From a bacterium (GTDB taxonomy: Bacteria; Hinthialibacterota; Hinthialibacteria; H5-UNCL2), in contig JABTUV010000001.1 in assembly GCA_015075175.1 (NCBI GenBank), positions 1,103,677 through 1,167,676 on the forward strand: a stretch of 64,000 bases of DNA, in the 5' to 3' direction. Under the pieces are notes generated by a model. It searched no databases, had not been told where the DNA came from, and saw nothing but the letters and a program-made list of their open reading frames with translations. Positions 2,839 to 30,322 of the stretch are shown here, piece by piece; position 1 is the first letter of the stretch; every line of letters starts with the position of its first letter. The position numbers were made by a program, and so were the translations under genes.

Positions 2839-3814
2839 TCGGCCATCTTGGGGGCCAGCAGCGCCTGCGCCTCGGGCGTGTTCATGTTCCGGCGCGTCAC
2901 GATCATCACGCCCGTATCGATGCGCTTCTCCACCGCCGCGCCGGAAAGATGTGCGACCATCGTCTTCACGGCCAGATAGCCCATCTTATAGGGATTCTGA
3001 AGCGTCAGGGCATCCAGATGGCCCTGGCGCAGGGCGTCGACCAGTTGCGGCGAACTGTCAAAGCCGATGAAGCGCACCTTGCCGGCCAGACCGCCGTCGC
3101 GCAGCGCGCGCAACATGCCGAAGGTGGACGACTCGTTGGGGCAAAAGATGCCGTCGATGGTCAGCGAGCCGTCGCCCACGCGCAACGGGGCCAGGAGATT
3201 TTCGCTCGCCTTGTAGGCCGATTCGGTCGTGGGGCCGGCGTACTGATTGGCGCTGATGACCTGAATGCCGGGATGGGCGGCGATGGCCTCCAGGAACCCT
3301 GCTCGCGCTGGCTGGTGCTGTCGGAGCCTTCCTGGTAGCGCAACACGGCCAGCGTGCCGCTCACTCCCACCAGCCGCGCCATTTCTTCTCCTGCCAGCCG
3401 GCCTCCCATCCTGTTGTCGGTCGCCACGAAGCTGACGTAATCTTCGCTCTTGAGTCCCGAGTCGAAGATGACGACGGGAATGCCGGCCTTGACGGCATCC
3501 GCCACGGGCGCGCGCAGGGCGGTATCGTCCAGCGGCGCCAAGACGATGCCGGAGACCCGGCGCGAGATGAAGTCCTCGACGACGGAAATCTGCTGGTCCC
3601 GGTCGTCTTCCTTCAGCGGGCCTTTCCAGATGATCGCCACGCCCAGTTCGGCGCCCGCGTCGGCGGCGCCGGCGTGCACGGACTTCCAGAACTCGTGCGT
3701 CGTGCCCTTGGGAATCACGGCGATGGTGGTCTTGTCGGGCTTTCCCCCGCAGGAGGAGAACAGGCACACGCCGGCCGACAGGAGAGACGCGAGAAGGAGA
3801 GACTTGCGCATCAT
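2835..3814 (-). pseudogene. Periplasmic sugar-binding lipoprotein (RbsB-like PBP) with an apparent -1 frameshift near 3295
   Basis: The N-terminal part (lipoprotein signal LLLASLLSAGVCLFSSCGG and PBP N-lobe) and the C-terminal part (PBP C-lobe) lie in two different frames that join at ...REQG|FLEA. A single missing T in GGTTCC explains the break. Confidence 0.7.
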
Positions 3815-8356: not shown

Positions 8357-10096
8357 GACATGAGGGACGTGGACGGTATCATGCATGATCTTCTGGACAA
8401 AATGGTGGCGGCGCGGCAGCTCTCCTCCGCCGACGCGGTCGCACTGCAACGACAGTGCGCCGCTGGAGAGCTCCCCGCCCCCCAGTCCGAAGAGGATGTC
8501 CTGCGCTGGCTGGCGCGGGAATACGATCTGCCTTATACCGATCTGGACAACGTCGAGCCGGACCGGGCCCTCTTGTCGCTGTTCCCCGCGCGGGTCCTCT
8601 TGAAGGAGGAGATTCTCCCGCTGCAGAGGGTTAACGGCAGCGTCGAGGTCGCCGTCTCCCGCCTGTTTGCTACCGAAGGGTTGGACACGCTCAAGGCCCT
8701 CACGGGCCTCTCGCTCTCGCCCGTGCTGGCTCCCTCCGGCGCCATCGCCCGTGAGATGAAAAAGCGGCTCGGCGTCGGCGCGGATACGCTGGACACGCTG
8801 GAGGAGGAAACCCCCCTGCAAGTCGTCGACGAGGCGGCCTCCGACGACGCCAACCTGGACGAGGCCGCCGAGGACGCCTCCATCATCCGCTTCGTCAACC
8901 AGGTGCTGGCCGACGCCATCGCCCTGCGCGCCACCGACATCCACCTGGAGCCGTTTGAAGAGGAGTTTCGCATCCGCTACCGGATCGATGGGATGCTCCA
9001 AGAGGTGCCCGTGCCGGTGCAGATCAAGCGCTTCCAGCCCGCCATCGTGTCGCGCGTGAAGATTCTCTCGCATCTGGACATCGCCGAGAAGCGCTTGCCG
9101 CAGGACGGCCGCATCAAGGTGCGGGTCGAGGGCGCCGAGGTGGATGTGCGCGTCTCCGTCATCCCCATGCTCCACGGCGAGGCCGTGGTCATGCGTCTCC
9201 TGCGCCAGGGCACGACGCTTTTGGGACTCTCCGAACTGCGCATGGCCGAGCGCGAGGCCCGCATCTTCCGCCGCATTCTCTCCTTGCCGCACGGCATCGT
9301 GCTCGTCACCGGCCCCACCGGCAGCGGCAAGACCACCACCCTTTATTCGGCGCTCTCCGAGATCAACGACGCGGTCCGCAAGATCATCACCATCGAGGAC
9401 CCGATCGAGTACCACATGCACGGCGTCAACCAGATTCAAGTGTCGGAGAAGGCGGGGCTTACGTTCGCCCGCGGTCTGCGCTCGATCCTCCGGCACGACC
9501 CGGACGTGGTGCTGGTGGGGGAAATCCGCGACTCGGAGACGGCGCAAATCGCCGTGCAGGCGTCGCTGACGGGACACCTGGTGTTTTCGACGCTGCACAC
9601 CAACGACGCGCCGGGGGCGCTGACGCGCCTCGTGGACATGGGAGTCGAGCCGTACCTGGTCGCCTCCTCGCTGGAGGCGGTGCTGGCGCAGCGGCTGGTG
9701 CGGGTGCTTTGCCCGCGCTGCAAGGTCGAGGAGACTTCGCAAAAGGCGCTGGCCTTCCGCGCCGAACTGGGCCTGCCCGAGGACCGGCCCATCTATCGCG
9801 CCGTGGGCTGCCCCGCCTGCCGGCATACCGGCTTTCACGGACGCCGCGCGGTCTTTGAATTGATGGACATGAACGACGAAATCCGCTCCATGGTTCTGCA
9901 TTCATGCTCCTCGGGCGAGATTCGCGCCGTGGCGCGCAAGACCGGCATGAAGTCGCTGTGCGAGGACGGCTGGCGGATCGTGGCGGAAGGCGAGACCACC
10001 CTGGAGGAGGTGCTGCGGGTGACCCGCAGCGACCGCTCCGACGGGGCCTCGCGCCTGGCGGAGGACGCGCAGATTTCCACCACGGAGAGCGCGTAA
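8357..10096 (+). CDS. gspE: Type II secretion / type IV pilus assembly ATPase (GspE/PilB)
   Basis: N-terminal GspE_N-like domain, Walker A GPTGSGKTT, and a CPxC...CPAC tetracysteine motif; about 580 aa. Confidence 0.9.
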   Translation, partial: DMRDVDGIMHDLLDKMVAARQLSSADAVALQRQCAAGELPAPQSEEDVLRWLAREYDLPYTDLDNVEPDRALLSLFPARVLLKEEILPLQRVNGSVEVAVSRLFATEGLDTLKALTGLSLSPVLAPSGAIAREMKKRLGVGADTLDTLEEETPLQVVDEAASDDANLDEAAEDASIIRFVNQVLADAIALRATDIHLEPFEEEFRIRYRIDGMLQEVPVPVQIKRFQPAIVSRVKILSHLDIAEKRLPQDGRIKVRVEGAEVDVRVSVIPMLHGEAVVMRLLRQGTTLLGLSELRMAEREARIFRRILSLPHGIVLVTGPTGSGKTTTLYSALSEINDAVRKIITIEDPIEYHMHGVNQIQVSEKAGLTFARGLRSILRHDPDVVLVGEIRDSETAQIAVQASLTGHLVFSTLHTNDAPGALTRLVDMGVEPYLVASSLEAVLAQRLVRVLCPRCKVEETSQKALAFRAELGLPEDRPIYRAVGCPACRHTGFHGRRAVFELMDMNDEIRSMVLHSCSSGEIRAVARKTGMKSLCEDGWRIVAEGETTLEEVLRVTRSDRSDGASRLAEDAQISTTESA

Positions 10097-10102
10097 CCCC
10101 CC

Positions 10103-11327
10103 ATGTCGCAGTTCCGTTATCGCGCGCTGCAAGCGGATGGAGGAATCGCCGAGGGGGCGCTGGATGCGCCCGGCCGGCATGAGGCGATGCGGCTACTGGA
10201 GGCGCGCGGCCTGCGTCCGGTGGGACTCTTTGAGGCCGGCGAAGCCGCCCCCGACCGCGCCGCGCCCCAACCCGAGGTCGCAAAAAAGAAAATCCCCCGC
10301 CGCGTGGTCGAGGACTTCACGCGGCAACTCTCCAGCCTCCTGTCGGCGGGCATTCCCCTCGCCCGGGCGTTGCGCATTCTCTCCAAGGAGGCCGCCAGTC
10401 CCGCCGCCGGCGCCACCTGGCGCGCCGTCCACGACCGCGTGGTCGATGGCGCCGCCCTCGCCGACGCCCTGACTCAATTCCCCTGAGACCTTTCCCCGCG
10501 TCTACGTCGCCATGGTCGCCGCCGGCGAAAGCGGCGGATTCCTGGACGTGGTGCTCAACCAGATCGCCGATTTCCAGATGCGCGAACGCGAACTTCGCTC
10601 CCGCATCATCTCCGCCATGATCTACCCCGCGGTCCTCCTGTGTCTCGCCGTGGCCGTTCTTGTTTTTCTCCTGACGTTCTTCATTCCGCGTTTTCAGGCG
10701 ATCTTTGCCGGATTCGGCGCGCAGTTGCCCCTGATTACACGCATCATTCTCTCCGCCAGCGAGGTTGCGCGGCACTACGGCGTGCTGGTCGTGCTCGTGC
10801 TCGTGGTGGGAGGGTTTCTGGCGCGGCGGGTGCTGGAGACGGAGCGGGGGCGGCGCGCCTGGGAGAGCCTCATCCTGCGCCTGCCCACCTTCGGCAGGCT
10901 TTCCGCCCGCTTCGCCATGACCCGCTTCTGCCGCATGTTGGGGACCTTGATCGGCGCGGGCGTGCCGCTGGTCAACTCGCTTTCCGTCGCCCGCCGCTCC
11001 CTGGGCAACCAGATTCTCGTCGACGCCGTCACCGCCAGCATCGACCGCGTCAAGGAAGGCGAGTCGCTGGCCGCCAGCCTCGCCGACACGCCTACCCTCT
11101 TTCCCGGCTCCATGATCGAGATGATCTCCGTAGCCGAAGAGACGGGACGGCTGGACAGCGAACTGGTGCGCCTGGCCGACGCCGCCGACTCGGACCTGGA
11201 CCGCCAACTGCGTATGGCCGTCGCCCTGGCCGAGCCGGTCATGCTGTTCCTTCTGGCCGGTTTCATCGGAACCATTTTCATCGGCATGGTCATGCCCATT
11301 TTCTCTTTGCAGGACTATATCAAGTAA
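10103..11327 (+). CDS. gspF: Type II secretion system protein F (GspF/PilC) with an apparent +1 frameshift at a C4 run near 10485
   Basis: The two halves of a GspF-like protein sit in two frames: ...ALTQFP* and then ETFPRVYVAMVAAGESGGFLDVVL. An extra T after CCCC explains the break. Confidence 0.8.
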
Positions 11328-11344: not shown

Positions 11345-11842
11345 ATGAGAATAACATGTTCGCAGCCGCGCCGCCGCCAATTTGAGCGGGTGGGTCGGGC
11401 ACTCTTGCCTGACAAGCCGGGTCAGGCGACCCGGCCTATCCGCGCGGGCTTCACGCTGGTCGAACTCTTGCTCGTACTCCTGATCCTGGCGGTGCTTGCG
11501 GCCATCGTCGTGCCCAAGTTCGTGGGCCGCAGCGAGCAGGCGCGCATCACCGCTGCGCAGACGCAACTGGCCATGTTCGAGTCCCAGCTGGACGCCTTCG
11601 AGGTGGACAACGGGTACTATCCCAAAGGCTCGGACGGCCTCTTGCAGTTGGTCGAGGAGCCGCGCGACGCCAAAAACTGGCGCGGCCCCTACTAGAAGGA
11701 GATTCCCCTCGATCCCTGGGGCAACGCTTACGTCTACGAGTATCCCGGCCGGCACAACGAACGCGGCTACGACCTCATGTCGCTGGGACCGGACGGCCGC
11801 GCGGGCACGGAAGACGACATCTGCAACTGGAGGACGAAGTAA
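11345..11842 (+). CDS. gspG: Major pseudopilin GspG carrying an in-frame TAG at 11693-11695
   Basis: Prepilin motif [23 protein letters not shown]. The conserved W-GPY-L-...-DPWGN-Y-Y motif reads [21 protein letters not shown] in a single frame, so TAG takes the place of the Leu codon. Confidence 0.75.
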
Positions 11843-11846
11843 ACCC

Positions 11847-12326
11847 ATGAAGTCGCCTTCCCGTCGTCGCGGGCTGACCATGATCGAGCTCTTGATCGTG
11901 ATGGCGCTGCTCACCATGGTCATGGCGCTGTCCCTGCCGCGCCTTTCGCGCTTTATGGGCGGGCGCGCGCTGACCGAGGAGACGCGCCGCTTCATCGCCC
12001 TGTCCCGCTATGCGCGCAGCCAGGCGATTACCCTGGGCGTGCCCATGCAACTGTGGTTGGACGCCGAGAACGGCCGCTATGGGCTTTCTCCTCTCTCCGG
12101 TTACGAGGATGCCGACGACCGCCCCGTCACCTTTGGACTGGGCGAGGACCTGCGCCTCCAGTTGCTCGACGGCCTCGCCGACAAGTCCGGCATGGCGTAC
12201 CTGACCTATTGGCCGGACGGGCGACTGGACGAGTCCGGGCCGCAGCGGATTCTCATCTGGAAGGGCGACGAAGAGGTCGTCCTGATCACGCGCTCGGGAC
12301 GCGATTTCGAGGTCAGGGCGGAGTAA
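11847..12326 (+). CDS. Minor pseudopilin (GspH-like)
   Basis: Prepilin-type N-terminus GLTMIELLIVMALLTMVMAL; 159 aa. Confidence 0.6.
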   Translation: MKSPSRRRGLTMIELLIVMALLTMVMALSLPRLSRFMGGRALTEETRRFIALSRYARSQAITLGVPMQLWLDAENGRYGLSPLSGYEDADDRPVTFGLGEDLRLQLLDGLADKSGMAYLTYWPDGRLDESGPQRILIWKGDEEVVLITRSGRDFEVRAE

Positions 12327-12328
12327 CC

Positions 12329-12736
12329 ATGAAGCGGCGCGGCGCATTTACGTTTGCGGAGACGCTGGCGGCGATGGCGTTCGCCGCCTTCGTCGTGCCC
12401 GTGGCCATTCACGCGGTCGTCATCGCCAATCGGGCCGGCGTGGCCGCCGAGCGCAAGCGCGTGGCCGCCGACCTGGCCCGGCATTGCCTGACCGACATCG
12501 TGGTAGGCGGCGATTGGCGCGATGCCGACAAGCGCGGCGATTTCGGCGAGGACCGGCCCGGCTACCGCTGGCAGCTCTCTGACCAGGCCTGGAGCGAGGA
12601 CGCCATGCGCGAGATTACCGTCGAGGTGTTTTACACCGTGCAGGACCGCGAGTATCGCGTCGCGCTCGCCACCCTCGTGCCCGAGACGGAGGAGACGGTC
12701 TCCAGCTCCTCCGCGGAAGGGACGGCGGCGCCATGA
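12329..12736 (+). CDS. Minor pseudopilin (GspI-like)
   Basis: N-terminus RRGAFTFAETLAAMAFAAFVV is prepilin-like; 135 aa. Confidence 0.5.
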   Translation: MKRRGAFTFAETLAAMAFAAFVVPVAIHAVVIANRAGVAAERKRVAADLARHCLTDIVVGGDWRDADKRGDFGEDRPGYRWQLSDQAWSEDAMREITVEVFYTVQDREYRVALATLVPETEETVSSSSAEGTAAP

Positions 12737-12881
12737 CGCGGGCGGTAGGCGCCGTCTCAGGAAAGATTGCAGCGTGCGGCCGTGCTCTCGATACGCGGCC
12801 CGAAGGTGCATCTCGGTACGATGCGCTCCCTCGTCGGGCCGCCCGCGAGGACGTCAGTCTTGTTCTTCTCTCAACCCTTCT

Positions 12882-13577
12882 TTTTTGCCAGCTTGCGCAG
12901 GAGGCTTCACGCTCTTGGAACTCTTGATCTCCAGCGTCATGGTCGCCATCCTCGTGGCCGCGCTGTATCCCGTCTTTCGCGGCGTGGTGCAGATGGAGAA
13001 CACCACGACCGACATGCTGGCGGCGGGCCGTCCCCTCGCCGACCTGGCGTTGCCGCTGCGTTTGGACCTGGAGAACGCCGTCGCGCCCGGCGGCCTTCTG
13101 GCCGGTCCGCTGCTCTCCGAGAAAAACGAGGAGGCCCGCGCCCGCCGCGACCGGCTGGAAATCTATACCACCTCCGCGCGCATCTCCGACAGCAGTCCCT
13201 GGGGCGAAATCTGCAAGGTCGAGTACACCCTGGAAGAGCCGGAAACCGGCGGCCGCGACGCGGGCAGGGAACTCATTCGCACCGTGACCCGCAACCTGCT
13301 GGCTTCCAGCGATTCGACTCCCACGGCGTACCTGCTCATCGACGGCGTGGAGTCGCTGGCCTTCTCGTTCTTTGACGGCGAGACCTGGCAGGACAGCTGG
13401 GACGCCACCAGTGCGGACACGGTGATGCCGGAGGCGATCCGCGTGGACATCACATTCGTTGCCGCAGAGGCTGGCCGGCGCCAGCGGCCGCCCCTGTCGT
13501 GGACGTTCGAGATCGCCGCGCAGCCGGTCAGCACGCCGACAGCCGCGTCCAGCCAGGGCGGGGGAGGGGGACGGTGA
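12882..13577 (+). CDS. Minor pseudopilin (GspJ-like); the start is uncertain because of a possible frameshift in a T6 run
   Basis: Prepilin motif GGFTLLELLISSVMVAILVAA. The nearest ATG (12818) is in another frame, so the candidate start is TTG at 12882. Confidence 0.5.
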   Translation, partial: FLPACAGGFTLLELLISSVMVAILVAALYPVFRGVVQMENTTTDMLAAGRPLADLALPLRLDLENAVAPGGLLAGPLLSEKNEEARARRDRLEIYTTSARISDSSPWGEICKVEYTLEEPETGGRDAGRELIRTVTRNLLASSDSTPTAYLLIDGVESLAFSFFDGETWQDSWDATSADTVMPEAIRVDITFVAAEAGRRQRPPLSWTFEIAAQPVSTPTAASSQGGGGGR

Positions 13578-14953
13578 TGAAAGCGTCTTCCGTGCCCGCC
13601 AAGAGCAGGCTCAAGCCTGTACTCCGGCATCGACGCGCGCGCGGCGCGGTCCTCGTGATCGTGATGTGGATCGCCCTGGGATTGGTGAGCGTGGCGCTGC
13701 TTTTCGGCGGGTCGATGATGCTGGAGTATCGCGCGGCGGACAACGCGGTTGCGGCACGGCAGGCCGAGACCGCGGCCGCGGGGGCCGCCCGCTACGTGCG
13801 CTTCTTGCTCTCCGACCTTACCACCCCGGGCGAGCCCCTGGACGCCGCCGACTACTCCGCCGAGGCCGTCCCCGTGGGCGAGGCCCGCTTCTGGCTGGTG
13901 GGCCGCGATCCCAACGAGGACCCCGACGAGCACCCGCGTTTCGGCCTCGTGGACGAAGCCGGCAAGCTCAACCTCAATACCGCCACCCGCGAGATGCTCG
14001 AGCTTCTGCCCCGCATGACCGCGGAACTGGCCGCCGCCATCGTGGATTGGCGCGACGAGGACGACGACCTCTCCCCCGACGGCGCCGAGTCGGAGACCTA
14101 TCTCAAACTCGACCCGCCCTACAACTGCAAGAACGCCCCCTTCGAGAGCGTGGATGAACTGCGCCTCGTTTACGGTGCGGACCTGGAGATTCTCTACGGC
14201 GAAGACACCAACCGCAACGGCGTCCTGGACCCCAACGAGGATGACGGCGACGCCAGCCCGCCCAGCGACAACGCCGACGGGCGGCTGGATGCGGGCATCT
14301 GCGAGTATCTGACGGTGTACAGCCGGCAGTCCAACACGCAGGCGGACGGCACGCCACGCGTCAATATCAACGGCGGCCGGCGGCAGATTGAAGAGGTCCT
14401 GGTGGAGGCGCTGGGCGAGACGCGTACCGCCGAGATCATGCCACTGCTCGGCCCCGGCGGGCAGTTCAGGAGCCTCCTGGAGTTCTACTATCGCGGCCAG
14501 ATCACCCTGGACGAGGCGGCGCTCCTGGAGGACGTGCTCACCGTGTCCGACGGTGATGAAATCCGCGGGTTGGTCAATATCATCACGGCGCCCGAACCGG
14601 TCCTCCTGTGCCTGCCCGGGATCGGCGAGGAGGGCGCGCCCGCGGTCATCGCCTATCGCCAGAATAAGACCGCCGACGAGCTGGCCACGGTCGCCTGGCT
14701 GCTTGCGGCGCTCGCGCCTGAGCGGGCGCTGGAGGCAGGCCCGTATATTACCGTCAAGAGCTACCAGTGGACGGCCGACGTGGCCGCGACAGGCCGCAAT
14801 GGGCGCGGCCTGGCGCGCATCCAGTGGGTCTTCGACCTCGCCGGCGGGCAACCAACCACGCTCTATCGGCGCGACCTTTCCCATCTCGGCTGGCCGCTGG
14901 GCGTGGACCTGCGCGCGACCTTGACCGCAGAAGCACGGGAGGAGCAGCGATGA
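13577..14953 (+). CDS. gspK: Type II secretion system protein K (large minor pseudopilin)
   Basis: N-terminal TM (VLVIVMWIALGLVSVALLF), about 458 aa, Asp-rich region (calcium-binding-like) and a helix-hairpin-helix-like stretch. Confidence 0.65.
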   Translation: MKASSVPAKSRLKPVLRHRRARGAVLVIVMWIALGLVSVALLFGGSMMLEYRAADNAVAARQAETAAAGAARYVRFLLSDLTTPGEPLDAADYSAEAVPVGEARFWLVGRDPNEDPDEHPRFGLVDEAGKLNLNTATREMLELLPRMTAELAAAIVDWRDEDDDLSPDGAESETYLKLDPPYNCKNAPFESVDELRLVYGADLEILYGEDTNRNGVLDPNEDDGDASPPSDNADGRLDAGICEYLTVYSRQSNTQADGTPRVNINGGRRQIEEVLVEALGETRTAEIMPLLGPGGQFRSLLEFYYRGQITLDEAALLEDVLTVSDGDEIRGLVNIITAPEPVLLCLPGIGEEGAPAVIAYRQNKTADELATVAWLLAALAPERALEAGPYITVKSYQWTADVAATGRNGRGLARIQWVFDLAGGQPTTLYRRDLSHLGWPLGVDLRATLTAEAREEQR

Positions 14954-16374
14954 AAGCCGGATCCCTGCGTTCGGGTGCGCTTTTGGGACTGTCGCTGGAG
15001 CCGGGCAAGCTCTCCTGCGCCATGGTCCAAGTCAGAGGCGGCCGGGCGCAGGTGAAGAAAACGCTGGAGGCGCCCCTGGCGCTGGACCCGCTCTCGGATG
15101 ATCCGGCGCTGGTGGGACGGGAGATTCGCAATCGCCTCTCGGCGGCAGGCATCCGGGCGCGGCGCTGCGCGCTGGCCCTGCCCGCCCGCTGGGTCCTCAC
15201 CCTACGCACCCCCCTGCCTGCCCTGGCGCCCGCCGACGAGGCCAACTACCTGGCCCTCGCGGCCGAGCGCGGATTCCCCTACGCGCCCAAAGACCTCTTC
15301 TGGGCGGTGTCGCGCTTCTCGCCCGCCAAGGGCGAGCTGGAGGCCACGCTGGTCGCCATTCCCGCCAACCACCTGGCCGTCATCGAGCGCGTGCTGCGGG
15401 CGGCGCGGCTCAAGCCGGTAACCATCACCGTGGGCGCCACGTTGCTCCTGCCGCCCCTGGACGACGGCGGCGGCCATGCAGTTGCGCTGGTCCTTTCCGA
15501 GACGGCGCTGGACCTGGCGGTCGGCGCCGGCGGCGGGCTGGTGGCCCTGCGTGCGCTGGGCGTCGAGCACGCGGGCATCGGCGAGGCCGCCCCCAGCGTG
15601 GACGCCATCGTGCGCGAATTGCGCATCACCCTGGGCCAGGCGCCGACCGACCTGCGCGAGCGCATCGACACCCTCTACCTTTGCGGTTCGCCCGCCATCG
15701 TAGACGACCTGGGGGACGCCTTGCGGGCGGGTGTGGCCCGATTGGGATTGACGTTGAATGTGGGCGCTCCACCCGTCGCCGACGGGCAGGCGTGGAGCCG
15801 CGAGCCGGTCGCGCCGACGGCGGCCGCGGCCGCCGCCCAATATCTCCTGGGCCGGCCGCCCCTGATCGCACAGCTGCCTCCCCGCCCCAGCCGCCACGCC
15901 CACTGGACCGGCCGCCTCTCGACCCGCTCGACCGTGTTCTGGGCAGGCGCCGCCGCCGCCCTGGCCGTGGTCGCAGGGCTGGCCTTCTTCGTCCAGCATT
16001 GGCGCCTCTCCCGCCTGGAACGCCAGTGGAGCGCCATCGCCCCTCAAGCGGAAAAACTTGGCGCCCTACAGGAAACCATGCGCCAGGTCCGCCCCTGGTT
16101 CGACGATTCCGCTCCCAGCCTCGTCGCTTTGTCGGCTCTTACCGAAGCCTTTCCCCAGACGGGCGAGGTTTGGACCAAGACCGTCTCCATCAAGGGTTCG
16201 GTCGTAACCTGCGAAGGCAACGCCCGGAGCAACGACGCCTGGCTGGGGATGCTGGCGCGCCTGCAGGCAACCGCGGGCGTCCAGGACTTGCAGGTGCGCG
16301 AGGTGCGCGGGGATTCGCCCCTGCAATTCAAGTTCAGCTTTCGCTGGAGTCCGGGGGACGAGCATGGAGCTTAA
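14950..16374 (+). CDS. GspL / PilM-PilN-like assembly protein: cytoplasmic actin-like domain, one TM, periplasmic domain
   Basis: 474 aa with a single central TM (FWAGAAAALAVVAGLAFFV); position within the cluster. Confidence 0.55.
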   Translation: MKAGSLRSGALLGLSLEPGKLSCAMVQVRGGRAQVKKTLEAPLALDPLSDDPALVGREIRNRLSAAGIRARRCALALPARWVLTLRTPLPALAPADEANYLALAAERGFPYAPKDLFWAVSRFSPAKGELEATLVAIPANHLAVIERVLRAARLKPVTITVGATLLLPPLDDGGGHAVALVLSETALDLAVGAGGGLVALRALGVEHAGIGEAAPSVDAIVRELRITLGQAPTDLRERIDTLYLCGSPAIVDDLGDALRAGVARLGLTLNVGAPPVADGQAWSREPVAPTAAAAAAQYLLGRPPLIAQLPPRPSRHAHWTGRLSTRSTVFWAGAAAALAVVAGLAFFVQHWRLSRLERQWSAIAPQAEKLGALQETMRQVRPWFDDSAPSLVALSALTEAFPQTGEVWTKTVSIKGSVVTCEGNARSNDAWLGMLARLQATAGVQDLQVREVRGDSPLQFKFSFRWSPGDEHGA

Positions 16375-16897
16375 ACGGCGCGAGCGCGTGCTGGCCGTCC
16401 TGGCCATCGCCGTTCTGGCGATATGGGCCGCCGACCAGTTGCTCATCGAGCCGCTGTGGGGCCTCTGGAAGGCGCGCCAGGAGCGGCTCTCGGAGCTGTC
16501 GGCATCGATTCTCCACGGCCGCTCGTTGGTGGACCGGGCGGCGGCCATCTCGGAACGATGGCAGGAGATGCGGGGGCGCAGCCTGCCGGCGGACGAGCCG
16601 GCGGCCGAGCAGGCGGTCCTCGTGGCCGTCTCCCGCTGGGCGGGCACCAGCCGATTGGGCGTCTCGGCCCTGAAGCCCCGCTGGCGGGAGGATGAAGGCG
16701 GACGCCGCCAGATCGAATGGAACGCCGAGGCCCAGGGCGATATCGCCCAAATCGCCCGCTTTCTTTACGAATTGGAACGGGATTCGCTAGCCTTGCGCGT
16801 GGAGGAACTGGATATCACCGCCCGCGACAACCGCGGCGAGACGCTGGCCCTGAAGCTCCGCTTCACCGGGCTCGTCTTTGAGGAGAAGACGTCATGA
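16364..16897 (+). CDS. GspM / PilO-like bitopic inner-membrane protein
   Basis: N-terminal TM VLAVLAIAVLAIWAA, 177 aa; position in the cluster. Confidence 0.45.
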   Translation: MELKRRERVLAVLAIAVLAIWAADQLLIEPLWGLWKARQERLSELSASILHGRSLVDRAAAISERWQEMRGRSLPADEPAAEQAVLVAVSRWAGTSRLGVSALKPRWREDEGGRRQIEWNAEAQGDIAQIARFLYELERDSLALRVEELDITARDNRGETLALKLRFTGLVFEEKTS

Positions 16898-17505
16898 CGA
16901 CCACGGCGGCCATCCCGGCTCGACTGCTGGTGGCGGCGTTCCTGGCGCTCCTCTTGGTGGCGCTGTGGTCGCCCGCATGGGGTCAGGATGAACGCCGCCC
17001 GCGGGATGCGGGCTTCGAGCGCTTCCGCGTGATCGTGGAGCGCAACATCTTTGAACCCAACCGGGGTCCGGCGCGCGGACATCGTCCCGCCCAGGAGGTT
17101 CGCCGCGACGATCCGCCGCCGGTCGAGACCTTGGCGCTTCTGGGCGCCGTCGTCTACGACAGCACGGTCGTCGCCGTCTTCACCGGATCGCGTCCCGATT
17201 TCCGGGCGACGGTGCGGCCCGGCGACAATCTGGCCGATATGCGAGTAGCGGAGATCAGGATTGGCGGGGTAACATTTGAGGGGGCAAGCGGCCGACTGGA
17301 ATTGCCGGTCGGTTGGCATCTGCGCCGGGTCGCCGGTGGGGAGTGGCAGGTCGCGTCCGGGCCGCTCCCGCAGCAGGTGCGGCGCAGGGAAGAGAGTCGC
17401 GCGGTTTCCGCCTCCGGCTCGCAGCCCGGCAGGCCGGCCGGGGTGGTGGAGTCCGACACCGCGCGACGCATGAGGGAGAGACGCGAGAGAGAGGAGTCGG
17501 AGTGA
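16894..17505 (+). CDS. GspC/GspN/PilP-like periplasmic protein
   Basis: Signal or TM N-terminus, 203 aa, charged C-terminus; position immediately upstream of the secretin gene. Confidence 0.35.
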   Translation: MTTTAAIPARLLVAAFLALLLVALWSPAWGQDERRPRDAGFERFRVIVERNIFEPNRGPARGHRPAQEVRRDDPPPVETLALLGAVVYDSTVVAVFTGSRPDFRATVRPGDNLADMRVAEIRIGGVTFEGASGRLELPVGWHLRRVAGGEWQVASGPLPQQVRRREESRAVSASGSQPGRPAGVVESDTARRMRERREREESE

Positions 17506-19026
17506 TGAATATCAAAAAGTCGATGCTCAGAGTGGCACTTCTGGTCGCCCTGGCAGCCATGCTTCCGGTCGTCGGCGCGGCGACCGAAGCGCCACCGCGC
17601 CGCCCGCCGCCTGGTTTCGCAAAACGCCCCCCCCAGTTCCGCCGAGGGCCTGCGCCTCAATTTCCGCGGCGCGCCCCTCGATACCGTGCTCGACTACCTG
17701 TCCGAGGCGGCGGGCTTCGTGATCGTGCGCGAGGCCCAGGTGGACGGGACCGTCGATGTCTGGAGCCACCAGCCGCTTTCCCGCGAGGAGGCGGTGGAAT
17801 TGCTCAACACCGTCCTCTACCAGAAGGGGTACGCCATCCTGCAGCGCGGGCGCATCCTGACCATCGTCTCCCGCAATGCCGCCACCCGCAGCGACATTCC
17901 GGTCAAGACCGGCCGCAAGCCCGAAGAGATTCCCCGCACCGACCAGCTGGTGACCATGGTCATTCCCGTCTCCTACGCCGACGCCGACAAGCTGGTGGAG
18001 AACCTGCGGCCGCTTCTGCCGCCTGAGACCACGCTCTCCTCCAACCACGGCAGCAACTCGCTGATTATCACCGGCCCCCAGACCGACATCCGGCGCATGG
18101 TGGAGATCGTGGACGCGCTGGACACCTCGCTGGCGGCGGTCTCGACCGTGCGCGTTTTTCCGCTGCGCTACGCCGACGCCAAGCAATTGGCCAGCGTGGT
18201 CACGGAAATCTTCAAGCAGGAGGATCAGAGCTCGCGCGACGGCAATCGCATGGAGCGGTTCATCCGCGGGATGCGCGGCGGGCCGTGGGGCGGAGGCGAC
18301 ATCTCCCTGGACGAGGGCGGCCCGGCCGCCCTCCGCGGCAATGTCCGCGTCATCGCCGTCGCCGACGAGCGCACCAATTCCCTCGTGGTCAGCGCCCCCG
18401 AGGAAGTCATGCCCACCATCGCCGGACTCGTCGCCGAGGTGGACACCGTCAGCGAGGATCTGACCCAGATTCGCGTCTTTCCGCTGCAATACGCCAGTGC
18501 GGAGGAGATGGCGCAGGTCATTACCGACATCTTCCAGCAGCGGACCCAGACCGGCCAGACTACCCAGACCCAGCAGGGGCCGCGCTTTTTCGGCTTCGGC
18601 GGGCGTGGTCCTTTCGGCGGCGCCCAGAATAATCAGAACGCCGCCAACACCTCCGCCACCGGCCGTCGCACCGTGCAGGAAAACACCGTGCTGGCGGTCG
18701 CCGATCTGCGCACCAATTCGGTCGTGGTGCGCGCCGCCAGCGAGCTGATGCCGCAGGTCGAGCAGATGATCCGCGGCCTGGACGAGAACCCCGCCAAGGC
18801 CAAGAAGGTCCACGTCTACCGCCTGGAGAACGCCGATCCCGAGCAGGTCGCGCAAATCCTGGAGGGCATGTTGTCGGGTGAGTCCGGCACCTCCAGCTCG
18901 TCCACCGGCAATCGCAACCTGCGTTCGCAGAATACTTCCAACACCCGCGGCAACACGGGGACTTCCGCCAATCGCAACACCGGCACGCGCAATACCGGTA
19001 CGCGCAACACGGGATTCAACTTCTAA
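17505..19026 (+). CDS. gspD: Secretin N-terminal periplasmic domains (N0, N1, N2, N3-like), frameshifted in a C8 homopolymer
   Basis: The signal peptide MNIKKSMLRVALLVALAAMLPVVGAA is in frame 0. The N0 domain (LNFRGAPLDTVLDYLSEAAGFVIV...) is in frame +1, and the junction is the C8 run at 17627-17634. The C-terminus is a low-complexity NTGTRNTGTRNTGFNF tail. No secretin pore domain is present in this ORF. Confidence 0.7.
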
Positions 19027-19049
19027 CGCGGCAGGAAAGGGAAAAAGCA

Positions 19050-20195
19050 ATGCCCATGACATGGAATGGACGACAGGCGCAACCTACCTCGCGCGACAAA
19101 CGGGCAGGCTGGATCGCCGGGCTGCTGTGCGCCGGACTCTTCTGGGCGACCACCGCTTCCGCCCAGTTTTTCCAGCAGCAGTTCGGCGGGGTGCAGTCCC
19201 GCGCCCGCGCCTCGACTTCCGGCGCCGTCAACAAGGCCGGCCTCTCCGAGGATACCGTTATTCAGATCGATCCCGACACCGGCGCCCTCATCATCGTCAC
19301 CGACGAGGAGACCCACGGGCAGTTGTCCGAGGTGATCCGCGAGCTGGACCGTCCCGTCCCGCAGGTGCTCATCAACGTGCTCTTCCTGGAGGTCACGCAC
19401 ACGAAAGACCTCGACCTAGGCGTGGAGGGGAGTTTCGGCTTCGACGGCAGCAGCCCCGCCGACCGCGACACCCTCCGCAGCGCGTTCGGCGTGGCCGCGG
19501 AGACGCGCGGCGGCTTCTATTATCTGCTCGAGCGCAACCTCAACGTGACCTTGCGCGCCCTCTCCGGCGTGGGCAAACTGGAGGTGCTCTCGCGGCCCTC
19601 CATCCTCACCCGCAGCAATCGCGAGGCCGTCATCACCGTCGGTCAGGTGCTGCCCGTCATCCGCAACAGCCGCATCACCCAGGACGGCCAGACCCTCAAC
19701 ACCATCGAGGAGAAGGACGTCGGCATCATCCTGCGCGTCACCCCCTTCATCACTTCCGACGGCCTGGTCGAGATGGACCTCTCGCCGGAGATTTCCACCC
19801 TCACCGGCGACACCGTTCCCATTACCGAGACCATCAACTATCCGGTCATCGCCAAGCGTTCGGCGGAGACGCGCGTGGTCGTGCCCAATGGGCGCACGGT
19901 CGTCATCGGCGGGCTTATGGAGGACAGCAAGACGCAGGAGGTCTCGAAAGTTCCCGTCCTCGGAGACATTCCGCTTTTGGGGTTGGCCTTTCAGCGCCGC
20001 AAGGACGCCAAGTCCAAGACCGAGCTCCTGATCTTTCTGACGCCGCACGTGCTGATGCGCTCCAGCGAGCTGGACGCCATGTCGGAAGCCGAGACCAACC
20101 GCGCCGAGCTGGCCCCCAAGGTCTTCGACCGGCAGCAGATGCAGAAATACCTGGATATTCCCGCGGAGGAGCCGCAGGAGATTGAACAACCCTAG
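19050..20195 (+). CDS. gspD: Secretin C-terminal (pore-forming) domain protein with its own signal peptide
   Basis: Signal-like MPMTWNGRQ...GLLCAGLFWATTASAQ, an N3-like domain, then the secretin domain VLINVLFLEV...PVLGDIPLLGLAF...ELLIFLTPHVL. Its ATG is preceded by an AGGAAAGGGAAAAAG ribosome-binding site. Confidence 0.8.
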   Translation: MPMTWNGRQAQPTSRDKRAGWIAGLLCAGLFWATTASAQFFQQQFGGVQSRARASTSGAVNKAGLSEDTVIQIDPDTGALIIVTDEETHGQLSEVIRELDRPVPQVLINVLFLEVTHTKDLDLGVEGSFGFDGSSPADRDTLRSAFGVAAETRGGFYYLLERNLNVTLRALSGVGKLEVLSRPSILTRSNREAVITVGQVLPVIRNSRITQDGQTLNTIEEKDVGIILRVTPFITSDGLVEMDLSPEISTLTGDTVPITETINYPVIAKRSAETRVVVPNGRTVVIGGLMEDSKTQEVSKVPVLGDIPLLGLAFQRRKDAKSKTELLIFLTPHVLMRSSELDAMSEAETNRAELAPKVFDRQQMQKYLDIPAEEPQEIEQP

Positions 20196-20199
20196 GACG

Positions 20200-20460
20200 G
20201 CGCCGGCGCCTCAGCGCCGCCCGCGCGATTGCCCCGCAATCGCGCTCGTAATCGCAAGCGATTGCGATTTGTCATCGTGCTGTTACGGATGGAGCTGTCA
20301 TTTCGACCGAAGGGAGAAATCCATCTTGCTGTTACCGCGGGGCGGGCGCGATGCAGAAGATCTCTCGCTTCGGTCGAAATGACAGCTACGATTACAGGCA
20401 GGATTAAGGTTACGATTACGAGTGAAACGGCGCCGCAGCCGAGTGCCAAGCAAGGAGAGA
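20200..20460. repeat. Composite element, copy 1: hexanucleotide arrays (CGTAAT-like / ATTACG-like) flanking a 20-bp perfect inverted repeat with a 58-bp core
   Basis: Left arm AGCTGTCATTTCGACCGAAG and right arm CTTCGGTCGAAATGACAGCT. Flanks are cgcaatcgcgctcgtaatcgcaagcgattgcgattt on the left and ctacgattacaggcaggattaaggttacgattacgag on the right. Confidence 0.7.
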
Positions 20461-20470
20461 CGCAAACGTC

Positions 20471-22065
20471 ATGGGCGGAAAGCGCAGCCATCTGGTCTAC
20501 TGGCTGCTCCTCATCGTGTGGGTGCTGATCGACGTCTGGCAGGTGATCGAGCACGATCGGGTCAGGGAGTCGGCCAAGGCGGCCCTGCGGGGACGGGCGC
20601 GCGACATCTCCAACACCGTGGGGATGGTGATCCGCTCGCGCCGCCAGGTCGTGGACCGGGAACGCATCGAGGAAGCCCTGCGTGAGTTGATGGAGTCGGA
20701 CGTGCTGATCTCGGTCGCCCTGCTCAATCGCGCCGGCGAAGTGCTGGCCTCGGCGGGGGAGCCGGTTGACGACGTGCTCAGGCATCTGCCGGAGGGCGGG
20801 GAACGCTGGGAGCGCGACCGCTACGTCAACTTCAACCCGGTAGACCTGGGCGCGGCGGTCGACCCGCAGGACGCGACCGAGGCCACACCCATCCTGTTCG
20901 ACGACAACGAACCGCCGGATGAAATGCGGCGGCCGCGTGCGCCCTGGCCGCCGGGCGTCACCATCGAGCAGACCTCGTCGGAGTTGATCATCCGGCGGCA
21001 ACTGCCGCCGGGCTGGCCGGCACCGGCTACCGGCGTCTGGGACGGCACGGGCGAACGACCGGGCGGTTGGCGGCCCCCTCCGCCTGACGTGGCGTTTTCC
21101 ACTGCCGAGCGCCGCCCGCCGCGGGCCGGCTTCGGCGGCCCTCCGCGCTGGGGCCGCCCCCGCTGGATTTCCGAACAGCAGTGGGCTTCCATGCTCAACC
21201 AGCGAGGTCACTGCGCAGCTTCGTCCTCGTCATGTCCAATCGCCAACGAGGCGAGGAATGCGCCCGTGACTTCGGCTGCGCTGCGCCGTCTCCGCCATCG
21301 CCCTGGTCGCCGTGGCGAGCCTGGCGCGCCTGGCGCAGCGTCGTCCGCTCCGGCGAGCTCGAATTGCGTCTCGTCCGCGCCAGCGAGACCAACGCCCGCC
21401 TGCGCGAAATGAACTTGGCCGCCGCCGGCCTCGCCCACGAAACCCGCAATCCCCTCAACATCGTGCGCGGCCTTGCCCAACTCATCGCCCAGGACTCCGC
21501 CGCCCCCGACGAAGTGCGCGCCCGCTCGCGTCAGATTGCCGAGGAAGTGGACCGCGTCACTGGACGCCTGGTCGAGTTCATCGATTATTCCCGCCCCCGC
21601 GAACCCAAGCCCGCTCCCGTCCAGCTGGCAACCGTCGTGCGCGACGTCATGCGCACCCTGGACGGCGACCGCGAGGAAAAAGCCGTCGAGTTCTCGCTTT
21701 CCGGTCCTGACCTGGTCGTGGAAGCCGACGAATCCCTCTTGCGACAGGTCCTCTTCAATCTTATGCTCAACGCGGTCGAGGCCGTGGACCACGGGGGCCG
21801 GATCGAAGTCAAGGTCGAGAAAGCCGGCCCGGACGAGGCCGCCTTCGAGGTGCGCGACAACGGTCCGGGCGTGCCGGAAGGCCTGCGCGAGGCCATCTTC
21901 CGTCCCTACTTTACCACCCACAAGGAGGGGACCGGCCTGGGCTTGGCGGTGGTGCGGCAGATCGTTTTGGCGCATCGCTGGGAGATCGCCTGCCTGGCCG
22001 GCGACGGCTCCGGCGCCCGCTTCCGCGTCACCGGTATGAAGCTGGCTTCCCGATCCGCCGCCTGA
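20471..22065 (+). CDS. Sensor histidine kinase (PilS/NtrB-like partner of the downstream sigma-54 regulator) with at least 2 frameshifts around TM2
   Basis: TM1 WLLLIVWVLIDVW and a periplasmic domain in one frame; TM2 AVSAIALVAVASLARLA in a second frame; coiled coil, HisKA (LAHETRNPLN) and HATPase (DNGPGVPEG...GTGLGL) in a third. Confidence 0.7.
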
Positions 22066-22069
22066 CCTC

Positions 22070-22420
22070 GTTTGCGGAACGCAATCGTAATCGTAATCGT
22101 AGTCGATTACGGCTCGTCACCATGCTCGTGCTCGCAAGTCGTAATCGTACTCGTACGGATAGATCTGTCATTTCGACCGAAAGATGCTGTCATTTCGACC
22201 GAGAGATGCTGTCATTTCGACCGATGGATGCTGTCATTTCGACCGAGAGATGCTGTCATTTCGACCGAAGGATGCTGTCATTTCGACCGAAGGATGCTGT
22301 CATTTCGACCGAAGGGAGAAATCTTTCTCGCTGTTACCGCCGGGCGGGTGCGATGCAGAAGGTTTCTGCCTTCGGTCGAAATGACGGCTGCGACGACGAG
22401 TACGAACAAGATTAGGATTA
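22070..22420. repeat. Composite element, copy 2: CGTAAT hexamer array, then 7 tandem 22-bp copies of the left-arm motif (nnnGATGCTGTCATTTCGACCGA), then core and right arm, then hexamers
   Basis: Direct reading of 22158-22315. The core CTGTTACCGCCGGGCGGGTGCGATGCAGAAG is nearly identical to the core of copy 1. Confidence 0.75.
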
Positions 22421-22422
22421 CC

Positions 22423-23778
22423 ATGCCCAACCACGCGCGAATCCTCGTTGTGGACGACGACGCCAGCCAGCGCAGTCTCCTGGAATGCTTTCTGCGCGGG
22501 CGCGGTTACGAGGTCTTGACGGCGGATACCGGCGAGGCGGCGCTGGCGATCCTCTCGTCAGAGGCCATCGACATGGTGATCTCGGACGTGCGCATGCCGG
22601 GCATTTCCGGACTGGAGACGCTGCGGCGCGCGCGGCAGTCGCATGCGGTCCTGCCCGTGTTGTTGGTGACCGCCTACGCGGACATCCGCGACGCGGTCGG
22701 CGCGATGCGCGACGGGGCGGTCAATTACCTGGAAAAGCCCATCGACCTGGATGAGCTTCTGGCGACGGTGCAGGCGGCCCTTGGGCCGCGCGAGGCGCCG
22801 CCGCCGTGGCTGCCCGCCGGTCTCAGATTGCCCGAGCACGTGGTCGCCCGCAGCCCGCTCACGCGCGAGGTTTTCCGCCAGGCCGCCCTGGTGGCGCCCT
22901 CGGATGCCCGCGTGCTGATTACCGGCGAGAGCGGCGTGGGCAAGGAAGTGGTCGCCGACGTGATCCACCTTTGGAGTCCGCGCGCCCGCGGACCCTTTCT
23001 CAAAGTCAACTGCGCCGCCATCCCCGAGTCGCTCTTGGAGAGCGAATTGTTCGGCCACGAGAAGGGCGCGTTTACCGGCGCGGTGGGACGCCGCGCCGGC
23101 CGCTTCGAGGAGGCCGAGGGCGGTTCCATCCTCCTGGACGAAATCGCCGAGATGTCCCCGGCGCTCCAGGCCAAGCTGCTGCGCGTCACGCAAGACGGCA
23201 GCTTTGAGCGCGTCGGCTCCAACGAGCGGCAAAGGAGCAACGTGCGCATCCTGGCATCCACCAACCGCAACCTGGAGGCGGAGGTCGCCGAAGGGCGTTT
23301 CCGCGAGGACCTCTTTTTTCGGCTCAACGTGGTGGAGATTTACGTCCCGCCCCTGCGCGAGCGGCAGGCGGACATCCTGGAACTGGCGCACTTGTTCGCC
23401 GAGCGCTTCGCCAAGCGCAAGCTGCGCTTTTCGGCGGCCTTCGCCACCTGCTTGGAACTGTACGACTGGCCGGGCAACGTGCGCGAGTTGGCCAACGCGC
23501 TGGAGCGCGCCGTGCTGCTGGCGGGCAGCGAACTCCTCCTGCCCGAGCACCTCCCCCGACGCATCCAGAAGGCCGGCGTCGCCTCAACCGACGCCGATGC
23601 TCCCGCCAAGGGCACGCGCATGGTGGACATGGAGCGCTCCCTGATTCTCTCCACCCTGCGGGAGCACAACTTCAGTCGTACCGAGACCGCGCGCACCCTG
23701 GGCATGAGCCGCCGCGCCCTGCTCTATAAGCTGCGCCGCTATGCCGAGGAGGGTTACGACGTCGGCTCCCGCTCGTGA
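22423..23778 (+). CDS. Sigma-54-dependent response regulator (NtrC/PilR family enhancer-binding protein)
   Basis: REC domain (VVDDD...D-VISDVRMPG), AAA+ sigma-54 interaction domain (GESGVGKE, GAFTGA, ESELFGHEKGAFTGA) and a C-terminal Fis-type HTH. Confidence 0.9.
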   Translation: MPNHARILVVDDDASQRSLLECFLRGRGYEVLTADTGEAALAILSSEAIDMVISDVRMPGISGLETLRRARQSHAVLPVLLVTAYADIRDAVGAMRDGAVNYLEKPIDLDELLATVQAALGPREAPPPWLPAGLRLPEHVVARSPLTREVFRQAALVAPSDARVLITGESGVGKEVVADVIHLWSPRARGPFLKVNCAAIPESLLESELFGHEKGAFTGAVGRRAGRFEEAEGGSILLDEIAEMSPALQAKLLRVTQDGSFERVGSNERQRSNVRILASTNRNLEAEVAEGRFREDLFFRLNVVEIYVPPLRERQADILELAHLFAERFAKRKLRFSAAFATCLELYDWPGNVRELANALERAVLLAGSELLLPEHLPRRIQKAGVASTDADAPAKGTRMVDMERSLILSTLREHNFSRTETARTLGMSRRALLYKLRRYAEEGYDVGSRS

Positions 23779-28279: not shown

Positions 28280-30322
28280 ATGAGTCATCGTCTTACCCGG
28301 CGCGACTTTCTGGCGACGACTGGACTGGCGACGGTCGCCGGACTTGCTCCCGCCTGGGTCCACGGGCGCGCCCCCGGCCCAATATCCTCATCATCCTGGC
28401 CGACGACTTGGGCTTCTCCGACATCGGCTGCTTCGGCGGCGAAATCCACACCCCCAACCTGGACGCGCTGGCGGGCAACGGCCTGCGCATGACGCACTTC
28501 TACAATACCGCCCGCTGCTGTCCCAGCCGCGCCAGCCTGCTCACGGGTCTCTACCCCCACCAGGCGGGCGTCGGCTGGATGGTCGCCGATTACGACAAGC
28601 CCGGCTATCGCGGCTTTCTCTCCGACCGCGTTGTGACCATCGCCGAGGCCCTGCGTCCGGCCGGCTACACGACCCTCATGTCCGGCAAGTGGCACGTCGG
28701 TGAGGTCCGCCCCCACTGGCCCGTGGACCGCGGTTTCGACGAGTATTACGGCATCGTCTCCGGCGGCAGCAACTACTGGAAACTGGACCGGGGCGCGTCT
28801 TCGCCCGCAACGACCAGCCCATCGTGCCGGACGCCCCCGGCTTTTACATGACCGACGCCTTCACCGACAACGCCCTCTCCTTTCTGGACCGGTACGCTGG
28901 CGGAGACAAGCCCTTCTTCCTGTATCTCGCTTACACCGCCCGCACTGGCCGCTGCACGCTTGGCCGGAGGACATCGAGAAGTATCGCGGCCGGTATCTCT
29001 GCGGGTGGGATCGGCTACGGCGGCGGCGGCATGAACGCATGATCGGCATGGGCATCGTCCGAAAAGAATGGCCGCTGACGCCCCGCGACTCCGTCGCACC
29101 CGCCTGGGACAGCCTGGGCGAAGACAGGAAACGCGACCTGGACCTGCGCATGGCCATCTACGCCGCGCAGGTGGATCGCATGGATCACAACATTGGCCGC
29201 GTGGTGCAACGACTGCGTCAATTGGGCCGGCTCGATAACACGTTGATCCTCTTTCTGGCCGACAACGGCGGCTGCGCGGAGGGCGGGCCGTTCGGCTTCG
29301 ACCGCGGAGAGGGACCCTTGGGAACCGCCGATTCGTACTCCAGTTACGGCCTCGGCTGGGCCAACGCCAGCAATACGCCTTTCCGCCGTTACAAGCACTG
29401 GGTCCACGAGGGCGGCATCGCCACCCCGCTGATCGCCCACTGGCCGGCAGTTATCAAGGCGCGTGGCACCCTTTCCGATCAGCCCGGCCACATCATCGAT
29501 CTCATGGCGACCTGCCTGGACGTGGCCGGCGCGAAATATCCCCGGGAGTTCGGGGGACATGAAATAACGCCGCTGGAGGGTAAGAGCCTCCTGCCTATCC
29601 TGGAGGGGAAGAAGCGCAAGGGGCACGAGGCCATCTTCTGGGAGCACGAGGGCAACCGCGCCGTGCGCGCCGGCGACTGGAAACTGGTGTCGCGCTTTCC
29701 CGGCAAGTGGGAACTCTACAACCTGCAAGAGGACCGCACGGAACTCCACGACCTGGCCGCCGAGCATCCCCGCAAGGTGCGGGAATTGGAGGCGCTCTAC
29801 AAACAGTGGGCGGAGCGCAGCCAGGTCCTGCCCTGGCCGGTGCGAACTCCGCCGTCTTCCGGCCGGCGCGAGTTCGTGCTCAAGGTCGGGGACCGGCTCG
29901 AGGGCGGGGAGGTTCCCAACATCGCCGAGACGGCGTTGCGCGTGAGTGCGAGCGTTACAGCAACGGGGGACGGCGTGATCGTCGCCCAGGGCGGTTCCCA
30001 GGCGGGCTTCGCGCTCTCCGTCGAGGATGGCCGGCCGGCGTTTACCGTGCGCAGCTGGCAAGCGACCACGACCATTAGGTCGGGACAGTCGATCCTGGGA
30101 CGCAAAGTGACGCTCCGGGCGCAGTTGGACGAAAACGGCGCCATGACGCTCTGGATCGACGACGAGAAGACGGCGAAGGGTTCCGCGCCTATTCTGATTC
30201 ACACCGTGCCCGGTGAGGGCCTTTTTGTAGGACGTGATCCCGGCAATCCCGTGGGCGCCTACGCGGCTCCCAGCGCCTTTGCAGGCACGATCCACGAAGT
30301 GCGCCTTACCCTCTTGCCGTAG
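28280..30322 (+). pseudogene. Arylsulfatase (formylglycine-dependent sulfatase, TAT-secreted) with 3 homopolymer frameshifts
   Basis: TAT signal RRDFLATTGLATVAGLA. Sulfatase motifs NILIILADDLGFSDIGCFGG and CCPSRASLLTG. The frame breaks fall at a C5 run (28371), a G4 run (28790) and a C3 run (28939). Confidence 0.8.

Follow-up and report, generated by a model that had tools for sequence, protein, structure and literature searches.

The window analysed here, a stretch of 64,000 nucleotides (nt) from a bacterium of the Hinthialibacterota (GenBank assembly GCA_015075175.1, contig JABTUV010000001.1, positions 1,103,677 to 1,167,676), carries at the end of a type II secretion system (T2SS) operon two adjacent genes that together encode the parts of a GspD secretin. 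Secretins are the textbook example of a giant channel built of many copies of one polypeptide, and GspD is a gated outer-membrane channel of 12 to 15 such copies. The locus is likely explained by a GspD-type T2SS secretin that was anciently fissioned and is now made as two polypeptides, each contributing a part of one N domain that would be rebuilt between them. The break lies within the pore-proximal Secretin_N domain, between Pfam positions 26 and 27, in a long disordered loop between α1 and β2, and the broken domain is the equivalent of N3 in classical GspD. The split is widespread, being conserved in Verrucomicrobiota and several candidate phyla.

Two genes and one divided domain

Gene 1 (the N-domain gene) and gene 2 (the pore gene) are laid out as listed below, the limits of N0 to N3 (17635-18783) having been drawn from Pfam, alignment to the GspD structures 5wq7 and 6hcg, AlphaFold secondary structure and the conservation profile.

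17505-19026, plus strand: gene 1, made up of a signal peptide, N0 and three full Secretin_N domains, with the opening third of a fourth and a tail of 50 residues
17505-17626, plus strand: start of gene 1, comprising the ATG, the signal peptide MNIKKSMLRVALLVALAAMLPVVGAA and a variable linker, in frame 3
17627-17634, plus strand: homopolymer of eight C (C8), at or near which the frame changes
17647-17871, plus strand: N0, gene 1
17944-18123, plus strand: N1, gene 1
18142-18444, plus strand: N2 with a 42-residue loop, gene 1
18463-18783, plus strand: N3 with a 49-residue loop rich in phenylalanine and glycine (FG), gene 1
18802-18873, plus strand: orphan first part of the pore-proximal N domain (β1-α1, KKVHVYRLENADPEQVAQILEGML), at the end of gene 1
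18874-19026, plus strand: disordered 50-residue G/S/N/T/R tail, ending ...NTSNTRGNTGTSANRNTGTRNTGTRNTGFNF, and TAA stop (19024-19026)
19027-19049, plus strand: intergenic spacer of 23 nt, with the ribosome-binding site AGGAAAGGG at 19033-19041
19050-20195, plus strand: gene 2, with its own signal peptide, the rest of the fourth N domain and the pore
19050-19250, plus strand: signal peptide of gene 2 (residues 1-38) and a 29-residue low-complexity linker (QFFQQQFGG...)
19251-19349, plus strand: orphan second part of the same N domain (β2-β3-α2, DTVIQIDPDTGALIIVTDEETHGQLSEVIRELD), gene 2
19350-20054, plus strand: secretin pore domain, followed as far as 20195 by short C-terminal helices and a TAG stop

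The ATG of gene 1 at 17505 overlaps the stop of the preceding gspC-like gene (TGATG), and an upstream extension of the gene 1 match in the N0 frame, to 17557 in tblastn, is a weak low-complexity alignment and no sign of another start. Gene 2 had been described in the initial annotation as starting 24 bp after gene 1 behind a strong ribosome-binding site and with a fresh signal peptide; both elements are present, AGGAAAGGG ending 8 nt upstream of the ATG at 19050, and the distance is corrected to 23 nt. The signal peptide takes the form of a hydrophobic N-terminus with a helix at residues 14-33 in the AlphaFold model, and is probably cleaved at ASA|Q, the residues A38-Q39 at the predicted site being almost invariant across the gene 2 family. 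A tblastn extension of gene 2 past its TAG was likewise discarded: the stop is real, because an independent assembly has the same stop and an identical product of 381 amino acids (aa).

Domain searches place the whole of a GspD on the two genes. In gene 1, Pfam recognizes N0 (PF21305, 32.8 bits) and Secretin_N (PF03958, 164 bits in four stretches), with no match to the PF00263 pore domain, while gene 2 covers positions 1-168 of the 169 in the PF00263 profile (167.5 bits) and also has a partial Secretin_N. The division into two open reading frames (ORFs), only the second with a pore, is thus as first described; the reading of gene 1 as N0/N1/N2/N3 also holds, with the addition of the first third of a further N domain. 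The NCBIfam GspD model TIGR02517 is matched by gene 1 over positions 15-336 (211.9 bits) and by gene 2 over positions 279-599 (231.8 bits), and neither half reaches its cut-off of 351 bits, the mark of a one-polypeptide GspD. Gene 1 aligns to N0-N2 of the GspD structures 5wq7 and 6hcg, the pore of gene 2 matches XcpQ (5wln) in phmmer at E=3e-37, and the best Foldseek matches of the gene 2 model are all T2SS GspD structures. The pair presents the features of the GspD type: a PF00263 pore, an N0 with tandem Secretin_N domains behind it, and a place in one operon with gspC, E, F, G-K, L and M.

The position of the break emerges from the two fragments that adjoin it. The end of gene 1 matches positions 1-26 of the 69-position Secretin_N profile (23.5 bits) and the start of gene 2 matches positions 27-69 (31.1 bits); joined, they match positions 1-69 at 54.2 bits, as compared with 56.8 for the intact N3 and 59.9 for N2 with their loops removed. 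The N-terminus and linker of mature gene 2 align to the α1-β2 loop of PulD and XcpQ N3 and are followed by β2-β3-α2 of that domain, and the AlphaFold model of gene 2 contains strands at 70-73 and 80-83 and a helix at 86-99, with a predicted local distance difference test (pLDDT) score of about 90, so that just a β-β-α unit precedes the pore. Taken together, the profile matches, the PulD/XcpQ alignment and the AlphaFold and Foldseek results locate the cut through an N domain and identify the gene 1 tail and the gene 2 linker as the upstream and downstream halves of its internal loop, two points that the initial annotation had not recognized.

Both orphan halves are under equal purifying selection. 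Over about 120 diverged sequences per gene, each has a conservation of 0.68, against 0.66-0.78 for the halves of intact N domains; the gene 1 tail and the gene 2 linker stand at 0.33 and 0.30, respectively. The tails of the gene 1 family measure 32-62 aa and consist to 85% of G/S/N/T/R/Q. A separate peculiarity of these low-complexity segments is an excess of Phe beside Gly, with 218 occurrences in the N3 loop of the gene 1 family (window 18535-18680), where 116 +/- 8.5 are expected from composition, and 122 in the tail (window 18874-19023), where 53 +/- 5.5 are expected, although the sequences are related, so that the statistic overstates their independence. The pattern, which resembles FG-type low-complexity regions, was seen neither in the N2 loop nor in the linker of gene 2.

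The two-gene arrangement is shared by every close relative. The best 120 homologues of gene 1, from Verrucomicrobiota (including the cultured genus Limisphaera), Sumerlaeota, Omnitrophota and others, are without exception N-only proteins (N0 plus Secretin_N) of 430-614 aa that lack a pore, and for gene 2 the 120 top homologues consist throughout of pore-only proteins of 306-481 aa, 115 of them with a signal-like hydrophobic N-terminus. When 1.8 billion cluster representatives were searched exhaustively, the top 150 matches included about 60 distinct N-only clusters. In seven of seven loci from species representatives of the Genome Taxonomy Database (L001-L007; Hydrogenedentota, Omnitrophota, Victivallales and unclassified metagenome-assembled genomes), the N-only gene adjoins a pore-only gene with stops between them, and all 11 related loci, from several phyla, carry two separate genes, side by side in the same operon, at gaps of -1 to +147 nt and in varying frame relation (in frame with each other, several stops intervening, in L001, L002 and L004, and in other frames in L003 and L005-L007). 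A whole operon, running from gspE to gspC and through the two secretin genes to the histidine kinase gene, is found in the closest relative, the short-read contig L008 (68% identity for gene 1 and 74% for gene 2), in Limisphaera, where the same protein occurs on 24 or more contigs, and on a complete chromosome of 5.99 Mb; a second assembly of the window's population, made independently from short reads, likewise has two secretin genes. With all 240 closest homologues half-proteins and all 11 loci two-gene, the natural two-polypeptide secretin that the initial annotation had entertained is borne out.

Fused full-length relatives, recovered with the concatenated mature proteins as query, stand further off (32-42% identity) and belong mostly to Planctomycetota. 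In these proteins a low-complexity loop of 36-91 aa, rich in Q/G/S/T/N, joins the first half to the second half and the pore, at exactly the place that in the split family is taken by the tail, the stop codon, the signal peptide and the linker. When the pore regions are compared in a neighbour-joining tree, 120 split and 78 fused proteins fall to either side of a single branch. The simplest reading, for which this tree is indicative, would be a single ancient fission within the loop, accompanied by the gain of a stop codon, ribosome-binding site and signal peptide.

The same exhaustive search also touched upon proteins of quite another size. Among the 150 best cluster representatives, about 90 (in the range P0325-P0466) are giants, 2,100-5,500 aa long and matching gene 1 in 16-48 separate stretches. 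One of them, P0334 (3,695 aa), combines an N0 with 35 Secretin_N domains and a Secretin pore at its C-terminus, and would amount to a secretin with dozens of periplasmic rings; no description of giant secretins with multiple Secretin_N domains was found in the searchable literature. P0362 (2,679 aa, N-only) was considered as a giant version of the split and dropped, being truncated by the contig end.

A proposed two-chain channel and its alternatives

The arrangement lends itself to a plausible mode of assembly. The gene 1 product would comprise a signal peptide, N0, three N domains, β1-α1 of the last N domain and a disordered tail, and the gene 2 product a signal peptide, a short disordered linker, β2-β3-α2 of the same domain and the pore. 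Both chains would be exported by Sec. In the periplasm, β1-α1 of chain 1 would dock onto β2-β3-α2 of chain 2 to rebuild one N domain, and the rebuilt domain would clamp the N0-N3 ring stack, in classical systems the part that contacts GspC via N0, beneath the outer-membrane pore, giving a channel with two chains per protomer. The halves would be unable to fold alone and yet are strongly constrained, a combination best explained by their folding together.

Several points weigh against this reading. Complementation in trans of the two half-domains is inferred. When AlphaFold was given a virtual fusion of the mature products, with alignment rows from the fused relatives and both split families, the orphan β1-α1 segment was assigned the right secondary structure at a pLDDT of only about 50. 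The fused relatives in the tree were sampled by their similarity to the query, so that the single origin is indicative. Lastly, the operon may be decaying in this strain, in whose assembly gene 1 has a frameshift and lesions also affect gspF, gspG and the kinase gene.

The unconfident placement of β1-α1 would suit the main rival view, in which the two products are separate modules: gene 2 a minimal pore, gene 1 a ring or adaptor free in the periplasm, bound to GspC and in contact with the pore just loosely or via its disordered tail, and the half-domains leftovers. Solved structures do include short secretins with a small number of N domains (RcpA, 8odn; phage pIV, 7ofh). Vestigial fragments that could not fold by themselves, however, are not expected to be as conserved as intact halves, and the two fragments together give a full-score Secretin_N match; this view is considered unlikely.

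A further alternative concerns the expression of gene 1, which is out of frame as assembled. The initial annotation had noted a frameshift at C8 that parts the signal peptide from N0, and had taken it for a probable indel in an error-prone assembly, with a phase-variation switch as the other possibility. The frames do differ: the signal peptide lies in frame 3 and N0 in frame 1, and deletion of one C restores a continuous protein of 506 aa. In homologues of gene 1 the signal peptide, linker and GLRLNFRG all share one frame. The frameshift can be placed only to 17581-17641, where C8 is the sole long homopolymer. An independent Logan contig, L011 (SRR11593520, 7.5 kb), covers 12786-20317 at 99.4% identity and has gene 1 intact as an ORF of 500 aa, with no C run in the corresponding linker. 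The window and L011 have no nucleotide difference between 17642 and 20060 (about 2.4 kb), and in the linker (17581-17641 against 4798-4838 of L011) some eight separate indels or substitutions fall within 60 nt, the window being longer by a net 19 nt (18+1). This difference exceeds a simple miscount of a homopolymer and may reflect either a consensus that failed locally or a genuine hypervariable allele of the linker. At six of eight amino-acid differences from the window, L011 agrees with the more distant L008, which points to consensus errors in the window, and the linker between signal peptide and N0 is not conserved in the gene 1 family. Most probably, then, the frameshift is an error of the consensus in a linker that is poorly resolved and under no constraint, rather than part of the biology, in line with the other lesions of the window. 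That C8 is a phase-variation switch turning gene 1 on and off is very improbable in spite of its position between the signal peptide and N0, since a near-identical assembly carries the gene intact without the tract, the two versions differ by several indels and not by one C, and the change of a single tract unit among close genomes was not seen between the window and L011.

That all close homologues are split, at varying gaps and in varying frames, is a pattern which recent mutation, assembly artefact or programmed recoding cannot explain, and the two other origins put forward for the split in the initial annotation, a programmed arrangement and a nonsense or indel event, both fall with it. 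Programmed readthrough or frameshifting that fuses the ORFs into a full-length secretin might be suggested by the short gap of 23 nt in the window, but neither frame relation nor gap length is conserved among the loci and the fusion would leave a signal peptide buried in the middle of the protein, making this origin extremely unlikely. The recent breakage of one ordinary secretin gene, by mutation or assembly error, has next to no likelihood despite the frameshifts and in-frame stop in neighbouring genes of this assembly, as the orthologues have two ORFs and not one continuous ORF, among all the close homologues as well as at 11 independent loci with differing intergenic lengths and frames, and gene 2 has a conserved signal peptide and a ribosome-binding site of its own.

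The operon and its surroundings

Genes 1 and 2 close a complete T2SS-like operon, the members of which were identified by tblastn of the L008 genes against the window and by Pfam and NCBIfam; genes for a histidine kinase and a sigma-54 response regulator come next.

8381-10090, plus strand: gspE
10103-11324, plus strand: gspF, with a frameshift near 10482 from an extra C in a CCCC run
11438-11839, plus strand: gspG, with an in-frame TAG at 11693-11695 (Y-stop-K)
11868-12347, plus strand: gspH
12329-12733, plus strand: gspI
about 12903-13550, plus strand: gspJ
13631-14950, plus strand: gspK
14968-16374, plus strand: gspL-like gene
16364-16897, plus strand: gspM-like gene
16894-17505, plus strand: gspC-like gene
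20471-22065, plus strand: histidine kinase, conserved downstream, with a frame change near 21205
22429-23778, plus strand: sigma-54 response regulator, conserved downstream

The same gene order is found in L008, L009/L010 and L013. Elsewhere in the window, a sulfatase ORF (28700-30322) and a periplasmic-binding ORF (2835-3767) give only partial Pfam profile matches, which suggests further frameshifts across the window.

The intergenic regions to either side of the histidine kinase gene are filled by a palindromic repeat, with arms GCTGTCATTTCGACCGAAGGGAGAAATC and an inverted copy about 35 nt apart, at 20230-20437 and 22080-22430, the second copy holding a 22-mer repeated seven times in tandem (22143-22340). 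The 18-nt core of the palindrome occurs ten times in the window, against an expected 0.02, and always in these two regions; L008 has no such insertion between kinase and regulator.

Comparison with known secretins

The N3-type domain is held to be necessary for pore assembly, and it is through this domain that a large conserved bacterial lineage appears to cut its T2SS secretin and to build it from two chains. Such a secretin offers a natural system for the study of ring-pore coupling, of a possible stepwise assembly of the two parts and of the role of long low-complexity loops. Since each half falls below the TIGR02517 cut-off, annotation pipelines and secretion-system detectors that expect a full-length GspD would score these systems as incomplete.

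The canonical GspD proteins PulD, XcpQ and EpsD share the order of N0, Secretin_N repeats and pore and the setting in a gspC-M operon, but are single chains, whereas the present secretin is divided between two polypeptides, has one extra N domain and carries long low-complexity loops within its N domains. The closest full-length relatives are the fused secretins of Planctomycetota (Sedimentisphaerales, Phycisphaerales and Tepidisphaeraceae; 690-1188 aa), which have the same architecture and align across about 80% of the concatenated query at the identity given above, but are single polypeptides without an internal signal peptide and stand on the other side of the tree branch.

Split secretins as such are already known, from the Rhc type III secretion system (T3SS) and from the mitochondrial T2SS, precedents that the initial annotation, in calling a two-polypeptide secretin unusual, did not mention. 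For the bacterial T2SS, no report of a split GspD was found in open-access papers and preprints. In the Rhc T3SS of rhizobia and the T3SS-2 of Pseudomonas syringae, the secretin is composed of RhcC1 (rhcC1/nolW) and RhcC2 (rhcC2), a conserved arrangement of which the significance is reported to be unknown (PMC3574062, PMC3973906), and according to a passage of PMC4311626 citing Abby and Rocha, RhcC2 came from a Tad locus by partial replacement, which is not in-place fission. The likeness lies in the N-terminal and C-terminal secretin parts being carried on two genes. The Rhc genes, however, belong to a T3SS and lie apart in their cluster; those of the window belong to a T2SS operon, are adjacent and are collinear with the fused GspD relatives.

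The nearest parallel to the position of the cut is found in the mitochondrial T2SS of some protists, where GspD is made in several polypeptides (GspD, GspDL and GspDN1-3). GspDN3 corresponds to the N-terminal half of a Secretin_N domain and GspDN2 to the C-terminal half, the latter extending into the first part of the pore domain (PMC8134430). The split is regarded by its authors as eukaryotic, the bacterial donor of the system was not identified, and Gcp16, a protein that co-occurs with the mitochondrial T2SS, is reported outside it only in bacteria of the Planctomycetes-Verrucomicrobia-Chlamydiae (PVC) group (PMC8134430). Both systems divide Secretin_N between polypeptides at the same intradomain position, but the mitochondrial one is eukaryotic, has no N0 or GspC and consists of more pieces, whereas N0 and a GspC-like gene are present here. 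Profiles of the eukaryotic GspDN1-3 gave weak and similar scores against split, fused and canonical targets (17.3, 16.3 and 12.9 bits), and the only evidence so far for a link is the shared α1-β2 break of the pore-proximal Secretin_N. That the split-GspD lineage of Verrucomicrobiota and allied phyla is the bacterial source or sister group of the mitochondrial T2SS is thus a proposition of very low probability, independent fission in the same exposed loop being at least as likely as kinship. The split nevertheless provides a discrete character with which the origin of the mitochondrial T2SS may be tested.

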